Source: Piedraia hortae CBS 480.64
Taxonomy: Eukaryota
DNA length: 64,000 nucleotides
NCBI GenBank assembly: GCA_010093745.1
Contig: MU005968.1
Coordinates: forward strand, 186,001-250,000
Direction of reading: 5' to 3'
Part shown: positions 37,495-48,729 of the stretch, piece by piece
Layout: the number at the start of each line of letters is the position of its first letter
Numbering within the stretch: position 1 is the first letter of the stretch
Notes under the pieces: generated by a model
What the model was told of the DNA's origin: nothing
Database searches by the model: none
Seen by the model: the letters and a program-made list of their open reading frames with translations, nothing else
Position numbers and translations under genes: made by a program

Positions 37495-40400
37495 CTAATA
37501 CGCTCCATCGTCCCTCTTAGCAGAAACATAGTCCCTCTCCCTGTTGTTATCCCTATCCCTGCGGTCGACAAAATCCGCGACATCAGCACCGCCGCTGCTC
37601 GGAGCCTCCAAGAGTTTAGGTGCGCGGGGGAGGAACTCATTCTCTTCAGAGTCGTCTTCATAATCATCACGTTCTTTCCGACGACGGCGTCTTTCTCTGT
37701 CCCTGTCCCTGTCCCTGTCCCGGTCACGGTCACGGTCACGGTCACGGTCACGGTCACGGTCACGGTCACGGTCACGGTCACGGTCACGGTCACGGTCTCG
37801 GTCACGGTCTCGGTCTCGGTCGCGGTCAGCGTCATAACGATGACTGGCTGGATATACAATTAATGGATCTGCGCGAAACGTGGTCGACAGAACTCACCTC
37901 GGATGTCGGCTGTGCGCTCAGCAAGCTTCTCCACGTCGCTTCTGGTGAGGACGCGAAGGACGATGACACAGTCTTTGCGTTCCTCAAACCGCTCGCCGGC
38001 TTCTTTGAGTGCAGCGGGGTTGATCAGTCTACGATCCACTCTTGTCCAGCGGGCGCCGGGTGGAATACCCTTCATTTTGGCCTAAGAAAATGTCAGATGG
38101 TTGAATCAGAAGATAGTGGAAGAACTCACGTCTTTCAACGGGGCAACACCCTCACGGACAGCTTCAGGATCCTCAGGGAAGCGCTCGGTGGGTTTCTTGA
38201 GAATTCCCTTAGGCTTGGGCTCTTCGTCTTCGGTGGGAGGGTCGATGATGCGGACTCTGGTCTCACGTCGGTCAGAGAGACTGTTGTCGATGACCTGCAC
38301 CGGATTGGTGGAATTCATGGGAGCATCAAGAACGCTGGGCTTTCGGCGCAGATCGCGGTCCCCGTCCTTATCCAAACTGTCGCGAGTGCGCGGAGGCGGA
38401 GCGGTGGATTCTGCGAGGTTCGTCACACCGACACCGGCGTCAAGCTTCGGCTCGTTCAGCTCCCGCTCTTCCCGGTCACGTTTCCGCTGTTCGCGATCAC
38501 GACGGCGGCGGACGCGCTCGGCATCAGAGTCGGAGTTGCGGTCCTCAGCCTTGCGGCCCAATTCGCGCTGCACCTTCTCCATTCGTCGGTGGTAGTCTTC
38601 GTCGGCGTCCATGGCTTTGCAGGCCTCCGCTTTCCACTGCGCTTCTTGCGCCTGCCAATCGTCCTCTGGGCGATCCTGATAACCACGACCGTCTCTGCTA
38701 CGGCTATATGAGCTGCTGTCGGTGCTGCCGACGCGATTGCGCCGATTGCCGTTTGTCCTGTCGACGTCGTCACCGCTTGCAACATCACGACTGCCGTCTC
38801 TCGTCTTCTCCTTGTCGCGATAGCGATCGCCATCCTTCTGCCGGCTGTCATCTGCATCGTCCCCGGGGTCGTCGCGATCGTCGCGGTCCTTGTCCACGAC
38901 CCGCATGTCGCCCTGTTCTTTGCTCTCGTCTCTTTCGCGACCCCGCTCCCGTTTCCGATCCTTGTCACGGTCCCGCCGGCGGTCCCGCTCACTTTCGTAG
39001 CCCCTCTCCCGCTCCTTAACGCGATCCTTTTCTCGCTCGACATCGCCGTCGTCGCGCTGGGGATCGCCATCTCCAGGCCTATCACGATTAAGCACCTTGT
39101 TAATGCCATAGACGGCAGCGGCTCCGGCAAGACCAGTGGTAGCGGCAGACGAAAGAGATGGGCCATCGCGCTCCATATGGCGCTGTCGCTCTCGTTCGCG
39201 CTCAGTCTCGCGGTCGTCGGTCCTGCGATCGTAGTCGTACGGCCGCTCATCGTCGTAGCGTCGATCGTCCCTGTCTTCTTTGCGCCGTTCATCTCGGTCC
39301 TCTTTTCGCCGATCGTCTCGGTCTTCTTTCCGCCGATCGTCTCTGTCTTCCTTCCGACGGTCATCTCTCTCCTCTCTCCGCCGGTCATCCCTCTCGTCCC
39401 TGACATCTCTGCGCCGTTCGTCTCTGCGTCGGTCATCTTTACGTCTATCATCGCGATCATCTCTGCGCCTGTCATCGTCCCGGCGCACGTCATGACTGTC
39501 GTCCCTCCGCCTCTCATGATCATAATTGTCATAAGGCCGTCGATCGCTTTCGTAGCCGTCATTAGGCCGTCGGTCACTTTCATAACCGTCGTAGTGCCGC
39601 CGCTCGCGCTCGTACGGAGCGTCTAACTGGCGCGGGGGCAACGGCATGTCAACGTAGGCGGGTTCGCGGTACTTGCGGTCGAAGCTCTCCTCGCTCGCAC
39701 GGCCACGAACATCACGGCTGGACGAGCGGATGCCGAAGCCGCGCGTCTCCACGCTGCCGTCTCTTGCATGCGTCATGCTCTCCCGTCGTGAGCGTGTGTA
39801 GGTCGGAGGCGGCATGGCGCGATCATAGTAGGAAGGAGCGCGGCTGTCTATGGAGTTTGACCTCGTGCGTTCGCGTGATCGCATCCGCGGCGGCAGATAG
39901 TCGCGAGAATCGACCAAGGAGCCTCTTGTTGGCGATTGCGGAAACGGCAGCGGGCGGCCGCGATTCAAATCGTTGATCTTATCCCACCCACGTGTGCTTG
40001 GTGGGGGTCCGGCCTCCCGCGCGTGTCGTTGCTCATGCGGCCACGCGTCGGCCATGCTCATAGGCCGCTCGCGGCTAGCCCCACCGCGATCCACGCTGCC
40101 ACGACGGGCGCGCGCATAACGCGGCTCTGTGTCGTAGTACATGCTGGCCGGCTCCAGGTATGAATAGGCCTCGCTGCCATCATCCCGCCCTCTCGGTCGC
40201 GCGTAGCTGCTGCCTGTATGGTACGGTTTGTACCCGCGGCCACCGTCCACTGCTAGCGTCGGGTTCCGATACGTGCTAGACTCGACACTCGGCCGCCGGT
40301 GGTGGTGACGGCCTCGATCAACGTCGTCGACGATGACCTTGGTGCCACCGTCATCGACTGAGTAGACCTTCTTGTGCGTGCGCGGCGGATCTTTGGCGGC

Positions 40401-40730
40401 GGCAGGAGCCACATAGTCCCGTGGAGGTCTCAACGGGCTCGATGGCCGCGGATAGTCTTGGTGCACCACCGACCGCGTGCGCGTCGGCAGCTGCTGCGGC
40501 GGCGGAGGCGGCGGAATCGTCCGCGTCGCGTCGGAGACACCTGGCACGAGTCGGCGACCGCTGTACGAGTCATAGGCAGGTGGGGGCGGTGGAGCGGCGT
40601 AAGACGTATACGACGGCGGTGGCGGAACGGCGGCGGGACGGACGGGAGCAACAGAACCGTGCCTTGAGTATTGGCCCTCCTCCCGCATCGGTTGGGTGCG
40701 ACGCGGCGACGGAGGCCGGTAGTAGGACAT
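37495..40730 (-). CDS. Conserved fungal Arg/Asp/Glu-rich low-complexity protein with a C-terminal GIPPGARWT..DRRL.NP.AL domain (introns 38082..38129 and 37848..37897)
   Basis: The 874-aa ORF splices in frame to KGIPPGARWTRVDRRLINPAALKEAGERFEERKDCVIVLRVL, then to a last exon with (RD)n and PKLLEAP, stopping at TAG 37495-37497. Confidence 0.8.
37698..37826. repeat. Coding hexanucleotide microsatellite (CACGGT)n with CCCTGT/CTCGGT variants, encoding poly-(Arg-Asp)
   Basis: About 12 perfect ggtcac units, visible directly in the last exon of the gene above. Confidence 0.95.
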
Positions 40731-42480
40731 GTTGTGCTGGTCAGAATCGGCTCAGAGATTTTCAGCCTGCACCGACACCGCCCCCCGTTATTGACGTACG
40801 GCGTCAGTGCGTGCACTCGATGACGTCGCTTATCACGTCACGGGGTATCCCCGGTGCACAATCCCTGTCCACGACTCCGCTGGCGAATCAGACGCGGCGT
40901 CATTCACTTCAAGCATTCCAGCCTTCCAACCAAGTGATGGCTGCTGCCTTCCGACTGCAGCCTTCTCCTGCACTGTAACTGCATTTGAAGCAGGGGCCTG
41001 AGCAAAAAAATAACTGGCGGCTAGCTATTGGCCTACAGATCTTTACAAAACTGTGGCCACGCCTCATCATAATACGTCTGAACATCGGACTCAAAACGAC
41101 ACCCCTCTCTTCGACCGGCACGTTGTAGGTTGATTTGTGTGCACACACTTATAATGCCTCTTGGCGGCCGCATTATTGATTGCAACTGTTGTTGCATTGT
41201 TGTAGATGATTTGCGGGTTGACGGTAACCTGCCAGAAATCAAGGGCAAAATCTGCTGCCGCACGGTAACTTCCTGGCGTGACTCGGGTGTAGTAGCCACT
41301 GTTCTTTTGATTATTTGAACAGAAAACCCACCAGCAGGTTGGTGGAGAAGCGCCCGCTTTCCTTAATCGGTGTCAGTCGGCGTTCCAAATCGTTTGTAGA
41401 GCAGCACCATGGCGGAGTGTGCATTCAAACGAATCAGTATTGCTCAGATCGCCCGCAGCCTCGGGGTTGTTGACTGCATAGTCGATGATACCGCCGGCGG
41501 TGCCATTGTCGGTGACTGTCACGTCAATGACGCGGAATTACATCCCTTGGGCAGCAGCTGCGAATGGAGCACCTAGGATTGAGGACTACATGATGACTCA
41601 GAGGAGAGAGAGCACTCATACTTATGCTTTACTCGAATACGAGCTCAGCAGATGCACTGTTCCCAATCCAGTTCATATTAGCGCTTCGGTTGTCCTACAT
41701 GAAAGCGGCCATTGGACGCCACCGCCTCGTGACCTTCTAACCCTTAAAGTATAGAGGTTCAGAAGCTGTTTTCTTCCTACAACACTTGTTTGGAATGTGA
41801 CAAAAGACTGAAGTCGTTGAGCTCTAGAGCAGTTATTGTGTAGAAGGCACAATCGATAACCACGAATGCCAACGAGGTTGGTGGAAAGACATCACCGACG
41901 TTGATCTCCTATCTCAATGGTGGACGCAGCTGACATCCCACCATGGACTTTGAAAGGGCATCGCCGTCCTCCTCGGATCATCGGCCACAACTCGGCTGAG
42001 AAAGGGTCGGTCGAACGGTTTCCGCACTTTCACCCGACCGGATGGCAGATCCATTGTCGCCGATTGGATGTCGTCGAAGTGTTTTGAACAGCGACTAAAA
42101 ATAGCCAGGTTGGAAATTCCAATGAACACCACCTGAGAAGTGAATCCAATTTGGAACACTCCGGTGTCGCCGGTACACAACATCTTTTAGCGAACCTCAT
42201 GACGAATACTTCAGGTGCAAGAACAATGGGAGGAAAAGTGTCATGATTCTCTCCGACCGTCCTCAGTTACCTCAGAACCTCGAACTCGTACGTCGTATTC
42301 TATAACACCGCCCTCGACATCAACGGCCATGACGTTGGTGGCGCCTCGTATTAACAAGAAAACTTCTAGCAACAATTGCAAGATCCTTGACGTGAACTCT
42401 GCCGGAGACCGGAAGAGAGCCGAGCTCCCTTCGCCATGTAGCTATAAAAGCCACCTTCGAACCCTCTCCCTCCATCCAAA

Positions 42481-43029
42481 ATGCATTATTCACTTATCCT
42501 CATCTCCCTCGCTGCCGCAACCCAAGGCCTCTACTTCCACGTCAGTCCCTTGACCATTACCGACAAGGGCAAAGATGGCGGCTGTGTCGATTTCACCGTA
42601 AACAATCCCGATGCCGTTTACGAACAAGGTGGCCATGATTCGGCCACGTGCTCCTTGCCCTGGTAGGAATACAACACACATCCAAAACGTACAACAACTG
42701 ATGGAGAATATAGGAGCTCCGGATCACCACCATCGTGCTGGTCACACTGCGATTCCGGCCATGGCTCCAGTGCCTACTACGCTCGCGTAACACCCGGAAG
42801 CTACCAGTCGGCTTCAAAGTACTCAATCGACATCTGGCAGCCGTATGTCTATGAGCTGGCCAATCATAACAACGGAACTGTGGAAATTAGCACGGATAAT
42901 GCGAATGCTCATTACGAGTGTGCTCCCCAGGGACAGTACACTACGTGCGAGACAAAGGATGGAGGTGCTTTTGATACCGCTGTGCACCCTTATTATGGTG
43001 GTTCGACGCCAGCGGATCCTTTCTGTTAA
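42481..43029 (+). CDS. Small secreted cysteine-containing protein, effector-like / AA1-like fold possible (intron 42663..42713)
   Basis: Signal peptide MHYSLILISLAAATQG. Spliced ...DFTV...ATCSLPW | SSGSPPSCWSHC...YECAPQGQYTTCE...PFC*. A tataaaa box lies about 40 bp upstream. Confidence 0.78.
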
Positions 43030-43941
43030 GGGTAGTTGTTGCGTGCATTACAGAATATGAAGCATAGAGTATGCATACAGTCATTTGATCATGATGGAAC
43101 ATTCTACTACAATCTGTGGAACAAGTTTGGTGTTGTCTTCGGTTTGGGGGGTTTGATGTGAATGATGGCTGTATGTTAACCTGTTTGTCATGCCAGCCGG
43201 TCAACATGAGTCGGCAGCATGTCAACGTATGTGAATGTTATCTGTCATTCAAGTCAACATTTCATCAACCCGCAAAGTCATCCATTCTCTCTGGCCTGAA
43301 AGACCACACTGAAGCTTGGGCGCTGGCAGAATGACGCACATAGCTCTCGGGATCGATAGAATCTACGTATTACCCAAAACCCCGCGGAGCGGGAGCTTCA
43401 CCGTTCCGACTCCAGGCAATGGCCTACAAGACTAAATGAAACAGCGGTATCTTGCGATCTATGCAATTGACAATTGCTACAAGCTAAGATGGCAGCCCGG
43501 ACAACTTTGTTGAGCCGAAGAATGCTGGGTAGGAATGCAGACTTTCGATTTGAAGAGCCGCGTGGCTGCCCCGTCTCCACAAGTTCTTGAAGGTTCCTGG
43601 AGCTCATGTGGGTCTTAACGGTTCTAGAAAAGGGAACCGCAAGAAGACGTTCAGACTGAGGAATGAAGTCTGCCAAACTGCCAGGCTGCTGTGTTTGTTT
43701 GCAACCTCGGCCTACATGTGCGTGGCTGGATTCGACAAACTTTGGCCAGTCCAGGGGAGCCATGCAGGCACAAGACTTATGTCCAGGCGTTTCCAGCCAC
43801 CGTGTTTTGATGCTTATTAGCTAAACCCCAACCTTTTCCGGCCCTTCCTCCCTGCACACCTTCTCCTTTGCTTCCCAAAGAACTCGAATACCCGCTATTT
43901 GAGCTCGAAGCATCGTTTTCGAGCTCCCGAAGCTCGCCACC

Positions 43942-45246
43942 CTGGATTATACTGCTGCCGTTCCGTAAGTATCCCGCGATTTCAATGCGTGAATGACGCG
44001 TTGACAGGCCCAGTGTCCCGTTCAGCGTCTTCCCCTCGACCTACAAGAACGAACAGGCTCGGACCGAGTCAGTAGAGGTCCAAACCGACGAGCGAATCAC
44101 TGTCCAAGGCGCTGGACGGGAGCAAAGATTTCCTAGAGCACCTCGACGCGAAGAACGCTTTGAGGAAATTCGCATCACCGATCGCGAACGTTCACACCGA
44201 CCAGAACGAGAATACTACGACGAGCGTCCCATTCGCCGCGTCGAGACTGAGACATTCGTTGCTGACCGACAGTAAGTTTCCCTGTTTATCGCGCGTCTGT
44301 GCGCACGGAGCTCCCCCTGAACCCAGCCACCCGCGTTGTCTGTGGCAACGGGATCTTTTTTTCTTCTTTTTTCCTTCTCTTGCTAACCAAAACAAACAGC
44401 TACCGAGAGCCCTATCGTCGCTACGCTGAAGCGCAGTTAGACGTAGAGGATCGTGTGTACCCAGAGCATCTTCAGGAGCGTCGTCCCCAGTTTCAGGAGG
44501 AATATCGTCCAGTTCGCACTTGGGAGGAGAAGACCACTTATCCAGCACAAGCAACAGAGCAGATTCACATCAGCCAACCAGAGGTTTCTCACAGGAAAAT
44601 GGGCTACTACGACGAAGACGGACACTACCATAGCTTCCGTCACGGAATGCACCAGGCAACGGACCGTATTCTGTACGGCCCTCGCCATCACCACGATCGT
44701 GCCACCGAGGACATTGTCGTTGAGAACCGTGAAATCACGACGAGCGCACCTCGCTACGAGGCCGAGCGTTATCAAGTTCGTCGTTCCTTGCGTCAAGCTC
44801 CCAACACCATCACGATTCCCTGCCATCACATTCGCATCGGGGACATCTTGATCCTCCAGGGCCGTCCGTGTCAGGTCATCCGCATCACGACTTCGGCTCA
44901 AACCGGCCAGCACCGCTACCTCGGTGTCGACCTCTTCACCAAGCAGCTGCACGAGGAGAGCAGCTTCGTCAGCAACCCTGCGCCTTCGGTTGTTGTGCAG
45001 AACATGCTCGGCCCCGTCTTCAAGCAGTATCGCGTGTTGGACATCCGCGATGATGGCCGCGTTGTTGCCATGACCGAGACGGGAGACGTGAAGCAGGGTC
45101 TTGCTGTCATTGACCAGAGCAGCCTCCTCCAGCGACTGTCTGACAGCTTTGCCAACGGTCGTGGTTCTGTGCGTGTTTTGGTTATCAACGACGAAGGACG
45201 TGAATTGGCGGTTGACTATAAGGTCATCCATGGCAGCCGTTTGTAG
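43942..45246 (+). CDS. hex-1: Woronin body major protein Hex-1/HexA; short form from ATG 44599, long form from CTG 43942 (introns 43965..44013 and 44272..44399)
   Basis: MGYYDEDG, eIF5A-like core (TITIPCHHIRIGDILILQGRPCQVIRI...QYRVLD) and C-terminal PTS1 SRL*. The gene call is firm; the CUG start is an inference. Confidence 0.95.
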
Positions 45247-45405
45247 GCAATTGAAATTGAGAACATTTAGTTGATAGTTGTGTAAAATTGATTGAAAAAA
45301 GAGTTCGTTGCTATGGCGTTGCTATGGAGACCATCTTTGCTTGTTGACGCCTCATAACGCCTTTAGATTGGCCATTGTTTCCAGTAACCCACATCGTTGT
45401 CTACA

Positions 45406-48400
45406 ATGTCTGCGCCTGGCTCAGCGCGAAGCGAATCGCCAACGAGCGTTTACAGTCATTCAACAAACAGATCGAACCAGACGGGAACCAAATACAATCC
45501 ACGCGCGTTTACTCAACAGCCCCAGATTCATCAGCCCGGGCGGTACAGACGCAAGACTTTGCTTTCGGGATACGTGACCAATCCATTTGATGATAACAAT
45601 GCCGAGACCGCCGGCCCTCCACCGCCGCCGCCGCCGCCGCATAGACATTTGGACCATAATGTCGGCTTTGTTGACTTTGCGAACGGGACCGAGGGAGTAA
45701 AGGTTTGGGATGAGAAGTCAGACGGCAAGGATGGAGTAAAGACTCCGCGCGACCGCTCTCCTCTGCCCAGCAAACCAAAGGATGTGCACAGCCCGCTTTC
45801 ATCGCCGAGGATATACCACAAGTCCCGCGAGTCAACCGAACTTTTGTCTCCGATACGCGGCAATTTTTCCAATGTTTCAGACGGAATCAAGCATTGGAGC
45901 TCTAAAGAAGAGGTCAATAGCCGAACTGGCTCTCCCGTAAGGCTTGGAAAGGATTTCGCTGTTAGAATCTCCCATAAGAACCTGCATTCGGAGCGGTCAG
46001 ATGGACAGCTTTCTAGCAAAACTGCGTCCTCTGTCGGGAAGGTTACGCCCAAGGCTGAGCCTGTGGCGAAGGTGCTAACGCATGAACCTGAAGCAAAGGT
46101 GGGCGCGTCTTATATTGCAGAGAAGGACAAGTTTGAGGATCAAATCAGCGCTTATGTACCGTCGCAAGTAGCCACCGAGGAGGATGATGTGTTTTCTCAT
46201 AGGGATATCAGTCCTAGTATCTCTCCTCTTCCGTCTCTGAGGGATTCGGAATTGCACATTTTCGGCGGGCTGAACGAGAGAATCTCTAACCAGTCCCAGG
46301 ATTGGCATCATGCTGAACCTACAACAGTCCACCAGCCGGCAGTGTTAACAACCAGCTCACCGGACCAGAGAAATTCTTGGGAGTCTGAGGAACAGAAAAG
46401 GGACATGGAACCGGAACTGGAAACAGTCTCGACGCCGCTGAACCATCGACGAACTTCAGACGACCATCATCTCAATTACCAGGGAGATGTCATCCGCAAC
46501 CACGAAATTATTCATTCCAGCCCCACGAGAGAGTTTTCCAACACTTTGTCCCGAGCAAACGATTTCTCCTCTCGTCCAAATACCGCCCGTTCGAACACAG
46601 GCTATTCCACCCGTCCTGCCACTGAACACTCTGCCCGTCCAACCACAGGGTACTCTACTCGTCCTGTCACTGAGTACTCTGCCCGTCCCACTACAGACTA
46701 CTCCAACCGTCCGACAACAGACTACTCTTATGCACCATCGGGACTCACAAACTCCAACGCAATACGGGACATTGAAAATCTCCTAGGCGGCAGAGTATTG
46801 TCTCCCTCGCCCGACGGTTCGGAAGCGTCAGACGATGAGCATGACTATGCCCAAAGAGGCCACATGGGCGGATTCAGCGCAGTCCCACCCTCGCCTCCAA
46901 AGTACAACTATAATCTCCAATCCAGAAAATCCCGAAGACGCAGTTCTCAACATGAGATGATTGCTCCTCTCGTCACGACTGCACCAGCCATCGATATACC
47001 GCAGCACGATCACCACCGAGCCCCCTCGTTCGAATCCATCTCCCCGCCCATCCCCCTCCAAGAAGCCACAAACCCCTACGGTCGGGAACCCTCCGTCCGC
47101 AAACCGGTCATCACGCGTAACACGCGCGACGGCAGTGGGAAATACATCCTCATGCCCACCGCAGGCGACAACTTCGAAGACTCAGAGAAAAGCTCCTGGC
47201 TCCAAGAGCAACAAGCTTCCCGACGCCGCACTCGACTCATTTGCATCATCCTCTTAGCCCTTCTCATCCTAGGCGCGATCGCAGGCGGAATCGCGGGCGG
47301 GATCCTCGCCGCCAAAGAGCACTCCAAATCCTCCTCCTCATCCACCATAAGCGGATCCCACAAATCGCACGGCCTCTACGATTCCTCCTCCCCCGAAGTC
47401 AAATCCCTCCTCCAAAACCCCAACCTTCACAAAGTCTTCCCGGGGATGGACTATACCCCCCTCGGCGCACAATACCCTGAATGCCTCACCTCCCCCTTAG
47501 ACCAAAACAACATCACCCTCGACCTCGCCGTCCTCTCCCAGCTAACCCCCACAATCCGCCTCTACGGAACGGACTGTCTCCAAACCGAAAAAGTTCTCAC
47601 TGGCATCTCGCGTCTAAACCTCAACTCCACTCTCAAAGTATGGGCAGGCGTCTGGCTGGGAAACAACAAAACCACAAATGACCGCCAGGTAAACCAACTC
47701 TACACCATCCTCGACACATACCCCCAAGAGCACTTCGCGGGGATCATCGTAGGGAATGAGGTCCTCTTCCGTAAAGATCTCTCGCCTGCGGCGCTGGGGG
47801 AGCAGATGGACAATGTCCGTCAGAAGGTTAAATCTAAGGGGTGGGATTTGCCTATTGCTACGTCAGATCTGGGTGATGAGTGGGACGCACAGCTTGCGGG
47901 AGCGAGTGATTTGGTCATGGCTAACGTGCATCCTTTTTTTGCGGGTGTGCCGGCCGACCAGGCCGCCGCTTGGACGTGGAGTTTTTGGCAGCAGCACGAT
48001 GCGAGTCTGAAGAGTGGGGGGAAGAGTGTTATTGCAGAGACGGGTTGGCCGTCCGAGGGTGGGACGGATTGTGGGACTGATAATCCTTGTCCGGCGCGGA
48101 TGAGGAGGAGGGAGGCGCAGTATGCTGCTGCACCCGCAGTGGGGACGGCGTCGGCTGCTGCTGTCGGGACTGCTGTTGCTGGGGAGGCTACCGCAGCCGG
48201 GGCTGGGGTAGCTGCTACGGGAAGTGCGGTTGCTGGAACCGCTGCGGCTGGGGAGTCTAACGCTGGGTCCGCAGCCACTGGGGAAGCTACTGCTGTGGGG
48301 GCTTCAACCGCGCTCGCAGGGGAAGCTACAGCCGGGACCGCAGTCGCTACCGTTGCGGAAAGCCAAATCACAGCTTGGGGCACTGCGGCCTCCACTGGCG

Positions 48401-48729
48401 AAGCTACCTCGGCGGCGACTCAAGCCACCGCCGCCGCCGCTTCCACAGACGAGCCCTCTTTTCCAGCATCCCCCTCACCCTCATCAACCGCTGTCGGTGC
48501 AGTAGCAGACATCCCCTCCCTCAATACCTTCCTCTCAACCTGGGTATGCCAATCCCTCACCAATGGGACACAATATTTCTGGTTTGAGGCGTTCGATGAA
48601 CCCTGGAAGAAGATTTTTGATACCCCCGGGAAGAAATGGGAGAGTAAATGGGGGCTGTTCGATGAAGAGAGGAATTTGAAGGATGGGGTGAAGATTCCGG
48701 ATTGTGGGGGGAAGGAGGCTGGGAGTTAA
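45406..48729 (+). CDS. btgC: Membrane-anchored GH17 glucan endo-1,3-beta-glucosidase, BtgC-like
   Basis: Long disordered N-terminus, one TM helix (LICIILLALLILGAIAGGIAGG), then LHKVFPGMDYTP..QYPEC, IRLYGTDC, IIVGNEVLFR, MANVHPFFAG, ETGWPS and YFWFEAFDEPWK. Confidence 0.92.
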   Translation: MSAPGSARSESPTSVYSHSTNRSNQTGTKYNPRAFTQQPQIHQPGRYRRKTLLSGYVTNPFDDNNAETAGPPPPPPPPHRHLDHNVGFVDFANGTEGVKVWDEKSDGKDGVKTPRDRSPLPSKPKDVHSPLSSPRIYHKSRESTELLSPIRGNFSNVSDGIKHWSSKEEVNSRTGSPVRLGKDFAVRISHKNLHSERSDGQLSSKTASSVGKVTPKAEPVAKVLTHEPEAKVGASYIAEKDKFEDQISAYVPSQVATEEDDVFSHRDISPSISPLPSLRDSELHIFGGLNERISNQSQDWHHAEPTTVHQPAVLTTSSPDQRNSWESEEQKRDMEPELETVSTPLNHRRTSDDHHLNYQGDVIRNHEIIHSSPTREFSNTLSRANDFSSRPNTARSNTGYSTRPATEHSARPTTGYSTRPVTEYSARPTTDYSNRPTTDYSYAPSGLTNSNAIRDIENLLGGRVLSPSPDGSEASDDEHDYAQRGHMGGFSAVPPSPPKYNYNLQSRKSRRRSSQHEMIAPLVTTAPAIDIPQHDHHRAPSFESISPPIPLQEATNPYGREPSVRKPVITRNTRDGSGKYILMPTAGDNFEDSEKSSWLQEQQASRRRTRLICIILLALLILGAIAGGIAGGILAAKEHSKSSSSSTISGSHKSHGLYDSSSPEVKSLLQNPNLHKVFPGMDYTPLGAQYPECLTSPLDQNNITLDLAVLSQLTPTIRLYGTDCLQTEKVLTGISRLNLNSTLKVWAGVWLGNNKTTNDRQVNQLYTILDTYPQEHFAGIIVGNEVLFRKDLSPAALGEQMDNVRQKVKSKGWDLPIATSDLGDEWDAQLAGASDLVMANVHPFFAGVPADQAAAWTWSFWQQHDASLKSGGKSVIAETGWPSEGGTDCGTDNPCPARMRRREAQYAAAPAVGTASAAAVGTAVAGEATAAGAGVAATGSAVAGTAAAGESNAGSAATGEATAVGASTALAGEATAGTAVATVAESQITAWGTAASTGEATSAATQATAAAASTDEPSFPASPSPSSTAVGAVADIPSLNTFLSTWVCQSLTNGTQYFWFEAFDEPWKKIFDTPGKKWESKWGLFDEERNLKDGVKIPDCGGKEAGS
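46570..46730 (+). repeat. 21-bp coding tandem repeat (RPTTxYS-like, about 6 copies)
   Basis: Translation YSTRPATEHSARPTTGYSTRPVTEYSARPTTDYSNRPTTDYS. Confidence 0.85.

Follow-up and report, generated by a model that had tools for sequence, protein, structure and literature searches.

The window analysed here, by which we mean the whole stretch of 64,000 nucleotides (nt), comes from contig MU005968.1 of Piedraia hortae CBS 480.64 (positions 186,001 to 250,000, forward strand). Judged by its sequence, one locus on its plus strand is hex-1 (hexA), the gene for the Woronin body major protein of a Dothideomycete. For about 25 years, HEX-1 has served as a textbook case of an organelle protein that assembles itself, usually described with a mass of about 19-25 kDa and with MGYYD as its N-terminus. 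The evidence gathered at this locus and in its orthologues argues that the same mRNA probably specifies a second and longer protein as well. A long form would be started at a CUG codon by non-AUG initiation, and the short form would be started at the MGYYD AUG through leaky scanning, a reading to which we give a probability of roughly 0.8.

The hex-1 locus and its transcript

The frame that opens at the first AUG is identical to protein record P0001. Its core is 75-81% identical to Dothideomycete proteins labelled 'Woronin body major protein', and a Pfam search of 44599-45243 finds PF21485 (31 bits, cut-off 27.1) and PF01287 (28.4 bits, cut-off 24.2). The protein has the eIF5A-like two-domain core of HEX-1, the MGYYD[DE] N-terminus and the C-terminal SRL. 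The accessible part of PMC7762394 describes this N-terminus in Hex1, together with the SRL as a peroxisomal targeting signal of type 1 (PTS1).

Upstream of this frame lies an extension whose translation, LDYTAAVPVPFSVFPSTYKNEQ..., leads without break into the ATG at 44599 (MGYYDED). Its three exonic parts (23+258+199 = 480 nt) contain no in-frame stop and, by script count, no ATG in any frame. No ATG is found between the TGA at 43900-43902 and the CTG at 43942-43944, and the spliced mRNA sequence is ATG-free from 43813 to 44598. This layout (the TGA, the gccaccCTGg context, both introns, the 480 exonic nt free of ATG, the junction with MGYYDED and the SRL end of the frame) had been drawn by the sequence-only reading from the letters of the window, and all of its coordinates were correct when checked against the sequence by script. 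The features are collected in the table. CT-rich tracts occur near fungal start sites, and this is the background to the assignment given there to the pyrimidine-rich tract.

Features of the hex-1 locus (positions are those of the window)
Feature	Position	Strand	Basis
Last upstream ATG, opening a 4-codon mini open reading frame (ATG CTT ATT AGC TAA)	43810..43824	+	ATG position list
Pyrimidine-rich tract, likely core-promoter or transcription-start region	43828..43880	+	sequence; CT-rich tracts known near fungal start sites
TGA in frame with the CTG, 42 nt upstream of it	43900..43902	+	sequence; lies within the collinear RNA contig
10-base-pair leader hairpin whose end is 15 nt upstream of the CTG	43901..43927	+	fold; counterpart of orthologue hairpins
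Start context gccaccCTGg; proposed CUG start codon at 43942-43944	43936..43945	+	sequence; orthologue contexts
Exon 1, coding part, 23 nt, LDYTAAVP, last codon split	43942..43964	+	RNA-contig joint 43964>44014
Intron 1, 49 nt, GTAAGT...ttgac...CAG; two ATGs (43985, 43993) lost on splicing	43965..44013	+	
Exon 2, 258 nt, most conserved part of the extension (VPFSVFPSTY..., GRE...)	44014..44271	+	
Intron 2, 128 nt, GTAAGT...gctaac...CAG, without ATG	44272..44399	+	
Exon 3, extension part, 199 nt, with the YREPYRRY..AQLDVEDR block	44400..44598	+	
Canonical HEX-1 frame from the first AUG, 215 amino acids, MGYYDED...SRL, context aaaATGg	44599..45246, including stop 45244-45246	+	
C-terminal SRL, the PTS1 tripeptide, common to both isoforms	45235..45243	+	
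Poly(A) addition sites	45313..45316	+	loose ends with A-runs at 45313 and 45316

The RNA evidence comes from X1, the sole public run found, which belongs to one study, contains 77% of the sampled words and whose labelling as RNA is a guess. Its Logan contigs were placed on 43300-45500; such contigs show neither transcription starts nor transcript levels. Both joints of the proposed structure, 43964>44014 and 44271>44400, are present in the X1 contigs with GT..AG borders, so the two introns that had been called from the letters are found spliced in RNA. The A-run loose ends listed in the table indicate that X1 contains polyadenylated RNA. Contig depth is 11,187 in exon 2, 11,454 over the joint of exons 2 and 3 and 11,649 in the core coding sequence, and this equality means that the extension exons belong to the bulk mRNA and not to a rare variant.

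Exon 1 is covered by a sole X1 contig of 907 nt, with a mean depth of 471, which is collinear with the genome from 43964 to beyond 43300. As this contig is collinear upstream and spliced only at 43964>44014, it includes the TGA at 43900, and it shows no upstream exon spliced between the TGA and the CTG. It reaches toward a plus-strand open reading frame (ORF) that ends at 43029, and may include read-through from that ORF. In the orthologues, transcript-like contigs hold a leader of 57-330 nt plus the CTG.

Within the gene, the X1 depth bins across intron 2 stand at about 1,548, which suggests some retention. In an mRNA retaining this intron, the long frame would stop at a TAA (44273-44275), and the path up to MGYYD would still be AUG-free.

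The CTG codon and the extension that it opens

For the comparison, 80 hex-1 loci were fetched from metagenomes and metatranscriptomes with an alignment of seven extension-only segments, and were recognised by the peptide patterns DMGYYD[ED] and LD[FY]D[AG][RK]VP[IV]. With a strict peptide scan, the start motif was located in 58 loci; relaxing the scan added 13, which have either an intron after ..AR or a variant motif. When the first codon was left free in a nucleotide scan, CTG was found in 71 of the 80 loci, as in the window, and no other codon was found; the nine other loci are genomic contigs cut off upstream. The sequence opening the conserved peptide is CTG-GAY-TWY in all 71. The suggestion that CTG would be kept as a codon therefore holds in every informative locus (71/71) plus the window. 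Five invariant leucine positions of the core served as a control, and CTG is used there in 16/69, 10/73, 13/73, 12/68 and 1/56 loci.

The surroundings of the codon are constrained in the same manner. Among 49 distinct contexts, the A at -3, the CTG itself, the G at +4 and the A at +5 are each present in 49, and the C at -4 in 46. Eight different codons precede the CTG, each beginning with A (AAT, AAC, ACG, AAA, AAG, AGG, ATC, ACC), while positions -2 and -1 vary, which points to a constraint on the context and not on the amino acid. The codons that follow the CTG vary synonymously: GAC is used 26 times and GAT 23 times, and the Ala/Gly position has five forms, including GCC, GCA and GCT.

Upstream of the CTG, the frame is closed. 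This was scanned in 56 strict-motif loci: going upstream from the CTG, 55 of them reach an in-frame stop after 12-486 nt without meeting an in-frame ATG, and the other locus (L012) runs off its contig. The stop is only 12 nt away in L070 and L071, where none of the three intervening codons is near-cognate. Another CTG, GTG, ACG or TTG with a purine at -3 and a G at +4 is found between stop and CTG in a single one of the 49 distinct sequences, and four of the 49 have no near-cognate codon there at all. The hairpin loop of the window contains an in-frame ATC (43912-43914), a weak near-cognate codon that has A at -3 and G at +4; it precedes the CTG by 30 nt and is not conserved.

The absence of ATG extends over the whole path from the leader to the core. 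Nineteen of the contigs are intron-free from the CTG to MGYYD, and most of them are transcript-like, with the leaders of 57-330 nt mentioned above; two are genomic, L013 and L010, the latter with an in-frame intron that it reads through. These 19 relatives hold leader, hairpin, CTG, extension and core on one contig. Their extensions (543-1077 nt) contain no ATG in 19/19 cases, where base composition predicts 7.0-15.2 per contig, and in the core coding regions of these contigs the number of ATGs is close to the expected one. The leader is free of ATG in 18/19; the exception is L010, whose single leader ATG lies 135 nt upstream of the CTG, beyond an in-frame stop at -99. For the 480 nt of the window, 6.1 ATGs are expected from base composition and none is seen, and codon shuffles that preserve the amino acids reach zero in 2.1% of 20,000 trials. 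The absence is modest for the window alone; shared by 19 orthologous contigs, it is far beyond chance.

The extension also bears the marks of a translated sequence. In all 19 intron-free contigs the CTG frame is without a stop, and the other two frames have 1-14 stops. Over 89 ungapped codon columns of 14 sequences, divergence at the three codon positions is 0.32, 0.27 and 0.52, which is a signature of protein-coding selection. The extension measures 160 codons in the window, the shortest seen, and 181-359 residues in relatives; the window lacks the block IDxxERxYRxR that is found in the others. It is rich in Arg, Glu and Asp, with short conserved islands, and this composition bears out the Arg/Glu-rich character first assigned to it. 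No Pfam family was found in the extension. An AlphaFold2 model of the long form of the nearest full-length relative (L006, 31 aligned sequences) gives a predicted local distance difference test score (pLDDT) that stays below 50 over almost the whole of residues 1-226, with a short helix at 159-168 of the extension, and core beta-barrels with a pLDDT of 70-94 over most of the core. The extension is thus predicted to be disordered. In one lineage (L058, L060, L069), it holds two or three repeats of the TVDPPRF type, and the sequences of L058 and L069 diverge directly after MGYYDEDGS, possibly a trace of the alternative intron known to follow the AUG closely.

In annotated proteins, the peptide of exon 2 used alone as a query matches only nine proteins, and annotated long forms of 385-485 amino acids and more are 53-66% identical over exon 3 of the window and the core. 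These long forms carry a block that reads [N/T/K/I]-L-D-[F/Y]-[D/E]-A-[R/K]-V-P-[V/I]-P-F-S-[V/I]-F-P-S, and their annotated N-termini upstream of its L are mutually unrelated. The block is found in Dothideomycetes, Lecanoromycetes, Eurotiomycetes (Talaromyces, Rasamsonia, Fonsecaea) and Sordariomycetes (Purpureocillium, Stachybotrys), and also in Leotiomycetes, Geoglossomycetes, Xylonomycetes and Arthoniomycetes. By our count, the extension is present in at least nine classes of Pezizomycotina. The similar segment LDF..RVPIPFSVFP that the sequence-only reading had named for Aspergillus annotations is real in Eurotiales (Talaromyces, Rasamsonia). The lineage was looked up for five species, and the remaining ones that carry the block are placed by their usual classification; Pezizomycetes and Orbiliomycetes lay outside the survey.

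Several public gene models (P0124, P0126, P0127, P0145, P0146, P0150, P0153, P0159 and P0216) have the long form fused to neighbouring genes or provided with unrelated N-termini, the fusion partners being protein kinase, Zn2Cys6 factor, amino-acid permease and 2OG-Fe(II) oxygenase genes. These N-termini are probably a systematic annotation error that comes from the missing ATG at the true start. A start without an ATG would explain the wide differences among public hex-1 models, since gene finders that require an ATG cannot place it, and a CUG start of hex-1 would have been missed or garbled in annotations accordingly.

The CTG is preceded by a conserved RNA structure. Among 46 leaders of 85 nt each, 42 fold with z < -2, with a mean z of -3.65; these are per-sequence folds against mononucleotide shuffles only, a weaker control. 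The hairpin of the orthologues is long, usually with a symmetric internal loop, and ends about 3-25 nt before the CTG. Its stem sequence differs between lineages, and the hairpin of the window is unlike the common type. RNAalifold on a MAFFT alignment of the 46 leaders returned no pairs, because this alignment is gappy and not structural, and a scan of 43300-45300 against Rfam 15 gave no match at E <= 1. Two other elements were considered and rejected: a conserved 3' splice site directly ahead of the CTG, since 'ccag' is present in some lineages and missing in many, and a downstream hairpin that would help the CUG, since only a 4-base-pair stem is seen there by eye and it is not conserved.

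A related motif has been published. As described in the accessible part of Li and Breaker 2017 (PMC5640933), the hexA motif is a long hairpin with two small internal loops, located in hexA 5' untranslated regions or introns, whose right shoulder resembles a 3' splice site and which has a long conserved tail with its least conserved bases at every third position. The authors proposed a control of alternative splicing, and the text accessible there names no non-AUG start. Compared by this verbal description, a hairpin with a coding-like tail fits the succession of hairpin, CTG and extension found here. The hairpin upstream of the CTG is therefore probably the published hexA motif, and we think, again from a match by description, that the tail of the motif is the beginning of the extension.

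One mRNA with two candidate starts

The path that we propose is as follows. The main hex-1 mRNA would carry no AUG from its 5' end to the MGYYD codon. Some of the scanning ribosomes would initiate at the CUG at 43942, whose context is optimal (A at -3, G at +4), and would make the long isoform, with 160 extra residues in the organism of the window and 181-359 in relatives. The ribosomes that pass the CUG would scan the AUG-free extension up to the AUG at 44599 and would make the classical, crystal-forming HEX-1 of 215 amino acids. Indeed, as there is no AUG in any frame along the extension, ribosomes that miss the CUG should reach the MGYYD AUG undiverted. Both isoforms would carry the C-terminal SRL, through which the long form too would presumably be imported, and a conserved hairpin lies some 15-25 nt upstream of the CUG.

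This interpretation, already put forward by the sequence-only reading, is supported by the invariance of the codon, the upstream stops, the depletion of ATG and the coding signal. Of the four refuting conditions which that reading named, three were put to the data, and none of them spoke against it. Several of the features expected of a non-AUG extension are present here: a conserved near-cognate codon, a stop upstream of it, coding selection downstream of it and an AUG-free path to the next start. This support is comparative, and from it we infer the initiation at the CUG. The ratio of the isoforms and any role of the long form are conjectural, and so are the ideas of the sequence-only reading that the long form is the minor one and that the ratio matters for Woronin bodies.

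Several points weigh against it. The case for CUG initiation is made by sequence comparison. X1 is a single run of a single study whose RNA label is a guess; its contig over exon 1 averages a depth of 471, where exon 2 has about 11,000, so that most transcripts might lack exon 1, and in the upstream direction the same contig runs past the ATG at 43810 and earlier ones. At least 660 nt of upstream sequence pull this average down, and exon 1 itself is possibly much deeper than 471. On the comparative side, one of the two search patterns demanded a Leu at the start position; at least 23 of the 71 loci mismatch this pattern (variants LDFEAR and ..RIP, or an intron after ..AR), which means that they were retrieved through the MGYYD pattern. 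The metagenome loci are also mutually related, and 71 loci are not 71 independent events. In addition, the conserved hairpin means that nucleotide conservation does not drop cleanly upstream of the CTG: the expectation that conservation begins at this codon held for the protein, whose frame is closed upstream by stops, and failed for the nucleotides, given the hairpin at 43901-43927.

A few annotated proteins also depart from Leu at the start position. P0337 has M there, and a synonymous TTG is possible. In P0345, the M written by the gene caller is TTG in the DNA of L041, and gene callers of that type also accept ATG and GTG as starts. As the caller type of P0337 is one that writes M for TTG, its codon is probably ATG, GTG or TTG; TTG would be synonymous, though a near-cognate start codon all the same. 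At this position a Q stands in P0374 (MQDFDAR) and in P0008 (..ELQQDFDAR), which may represent a shifted or changed start in one sublineage.

The depth of exon 1 is what gives weight to an arrangement with two mRNAs, in which most transcripts would start in intron 1 or early exon 2 and make the short form only, while a minor transcript with a long leader would make the long form. Where transcription starts, rather than leaky scanning, would then mainly determine the ratio of the isoforms. The contig over leader and exon 1 stands at 471 against the 11,187 of exon 2 and the 11,454 of the exon 2-3 joint, and the depth bin 43966-44039 reaches 2,744, which is above what the exon-1 contig supplies and points to another path that joins exon 2. 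However, the value of 471 averages the whole 907-nt contig, at least 660 nt of which precede any plausible start site, read depth declines toward the 5' ends of mRNAs, and the contigs of the nineteen intron-free relatives unite leader, hairpin, CTG, extension and core. The short form requires an extension depleted of ATG throughout only if ribosomes scan across it, and this holds for both models. We regard such a division between two transcripts as unlikely.

Two other explanations concern the extension itself, and both seem far less probable. The extension might be untranslated, a long AUG-free 5' leader with RNA elements that control splicing, localisation or translation, in which CTGGA would be part of an element. 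The hairpin is real, and the region has been described as a candidate structured RNA (accessible part of Li and Breaker 2017, PMC5640933). Nevertheless, a leader of this kind is very hard to reconcile with a CTG frame that stays open over 543-1077 nt in 19/19 contigs when the other frames have 1-14 stops, with third codon positions that diverge about twice as much as second positions, and with peptide blocks that are kept across classes while size changes in whole codons; the third-position variation in the 3' tail of the motif was itself noted in the accessible text of PMC5640933. The extension might instead be translated from an AUG, located in an upstream exon or farther up in the same frame, as most public models assume. 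Many annotated long forms do start with an M upstream of the motif, and the X1 contig does extend to upstream ATGs. Yet the annotated N-termini are mutually unrelated, with several fused to neighbouring genes, the leader is ATG-free in 18/19 intron-free contigs (the ATG of L010 being beyond its stop at -99), and the upstream exon with an ATG that had been named as a refutation was sought and not found: the RNA contig of the window is unspliced from the TGA to the CTG, and stops without an intervening in-frame ATG close the frame in 55/56 loci. An AUG start of the long form is thus the least probable of these alternatives, just behind the untranslated leader.

Known systems, possible meaning and neighbouring genes

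Initiation of the long form at a CUG would have parallels in other genes. In classical animal mRNAs with a CUG and an AUG start, such as those of FGF2 and MYC, an upstream CUG in a good context gives a longer isoform by leaky scanning, and peroxisomal isoforms with a non-AUG start exist in fungi. These cases concern other proteins and other purposes than hex-1. In particular, both HEX-1 isoforms would bear the same C-terminal signal, and targeting would therefore not depend on the extension.

Among fungi, the nearest parallel is the extension of cpc-1 in Pezizomycotina, which starts at a near-cognate codon, as far as can be judged from the accessible part of Ivanov et al. 2017 (PMC5487733). 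There, too, an in-frame near-cognate start is conserved with A at -3 and G at +4. Both extensions, that of cpc-1 and that of hex-1, are conserved in amino acids across Pezizomycotina, and in both cases the annotations leave the start unresolved (PMC5487733, same part).

Isoforms of Hex1 itself have been described in Verticillium dahliae. According to the accessible text of PMC7762394, two splice forms differ at their N-terminus and share the core and PTS1, as the two forms proposed here would. However, both Verticillium forms use the AUG of MGYYD as their start, and an intron just after MGYYD makes the difference of about 20 residues between them (188 versus 209 amino acids), whereas the long form discussed here would add 160-359 residues upstream of that AUG from a non-AUG start, and the core coding sequence of the window has no intron after MGYYD. 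The same text regards long predicted N-termini of Hex1 as probable annotation errors. In Pyricularia, HEX1 transcripts encode proteins of 439 and 417 amino acids, on whose start the accessible part of PMC8475275 does not comment. A search for literature that links hex-1 or HexA to a CUG or other non-AUG start found none, with subscription journals outside its coverage. The mechanism is already known in kind, then, and it is its occurrence in HEX-1, with such conservation, that appears to be new.

If the reading is right, a second isoform, two to three times longer than the first, would be an unrecognised component of the Woronin body, and the published hexA RNA motif could be read in another way, as a hairpin in front of the first part of a coding region. 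One may go further and tentatively suppose that every Woronin body of the leotiomyceta holds a CUG-started long isoform beside crystalline HEX-1, with a disordered Arg/Glu-rich arm that has a task of its own; we think this is more doubtful than the dual start itself, and rather improbable as it stands. Such a task would be, for example, to limit or to seed the growth of the lattice, or to link the core to the membrane or a tether. If this were true, stress or growth signals that alter the stringency of start selection would retune the make-up of the Woronin body without any change in transcription or splicing.

Around hex-1, two small ORFs, at 42667-43029 (plus strand) and 41091-41372 (minus strand), share the motif YY[A/T]RVTPGSY and may, by their sequence, encode paralogous small proteins. 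The plus-strand one ends 870 nt upstream of the hex-1 hairpin. The large flanking ORFs lie at 38106-40751 (minus strand) and 45388-48729 (plus strand). One of these flanking ORFs encodes 881 amino acids, Arg/Asp/Glu-rich and of low complexity, and the other 1113 amino acids, Ser/Pro-rich, with a transmembrane-like stretch and a structured C-terminal part.

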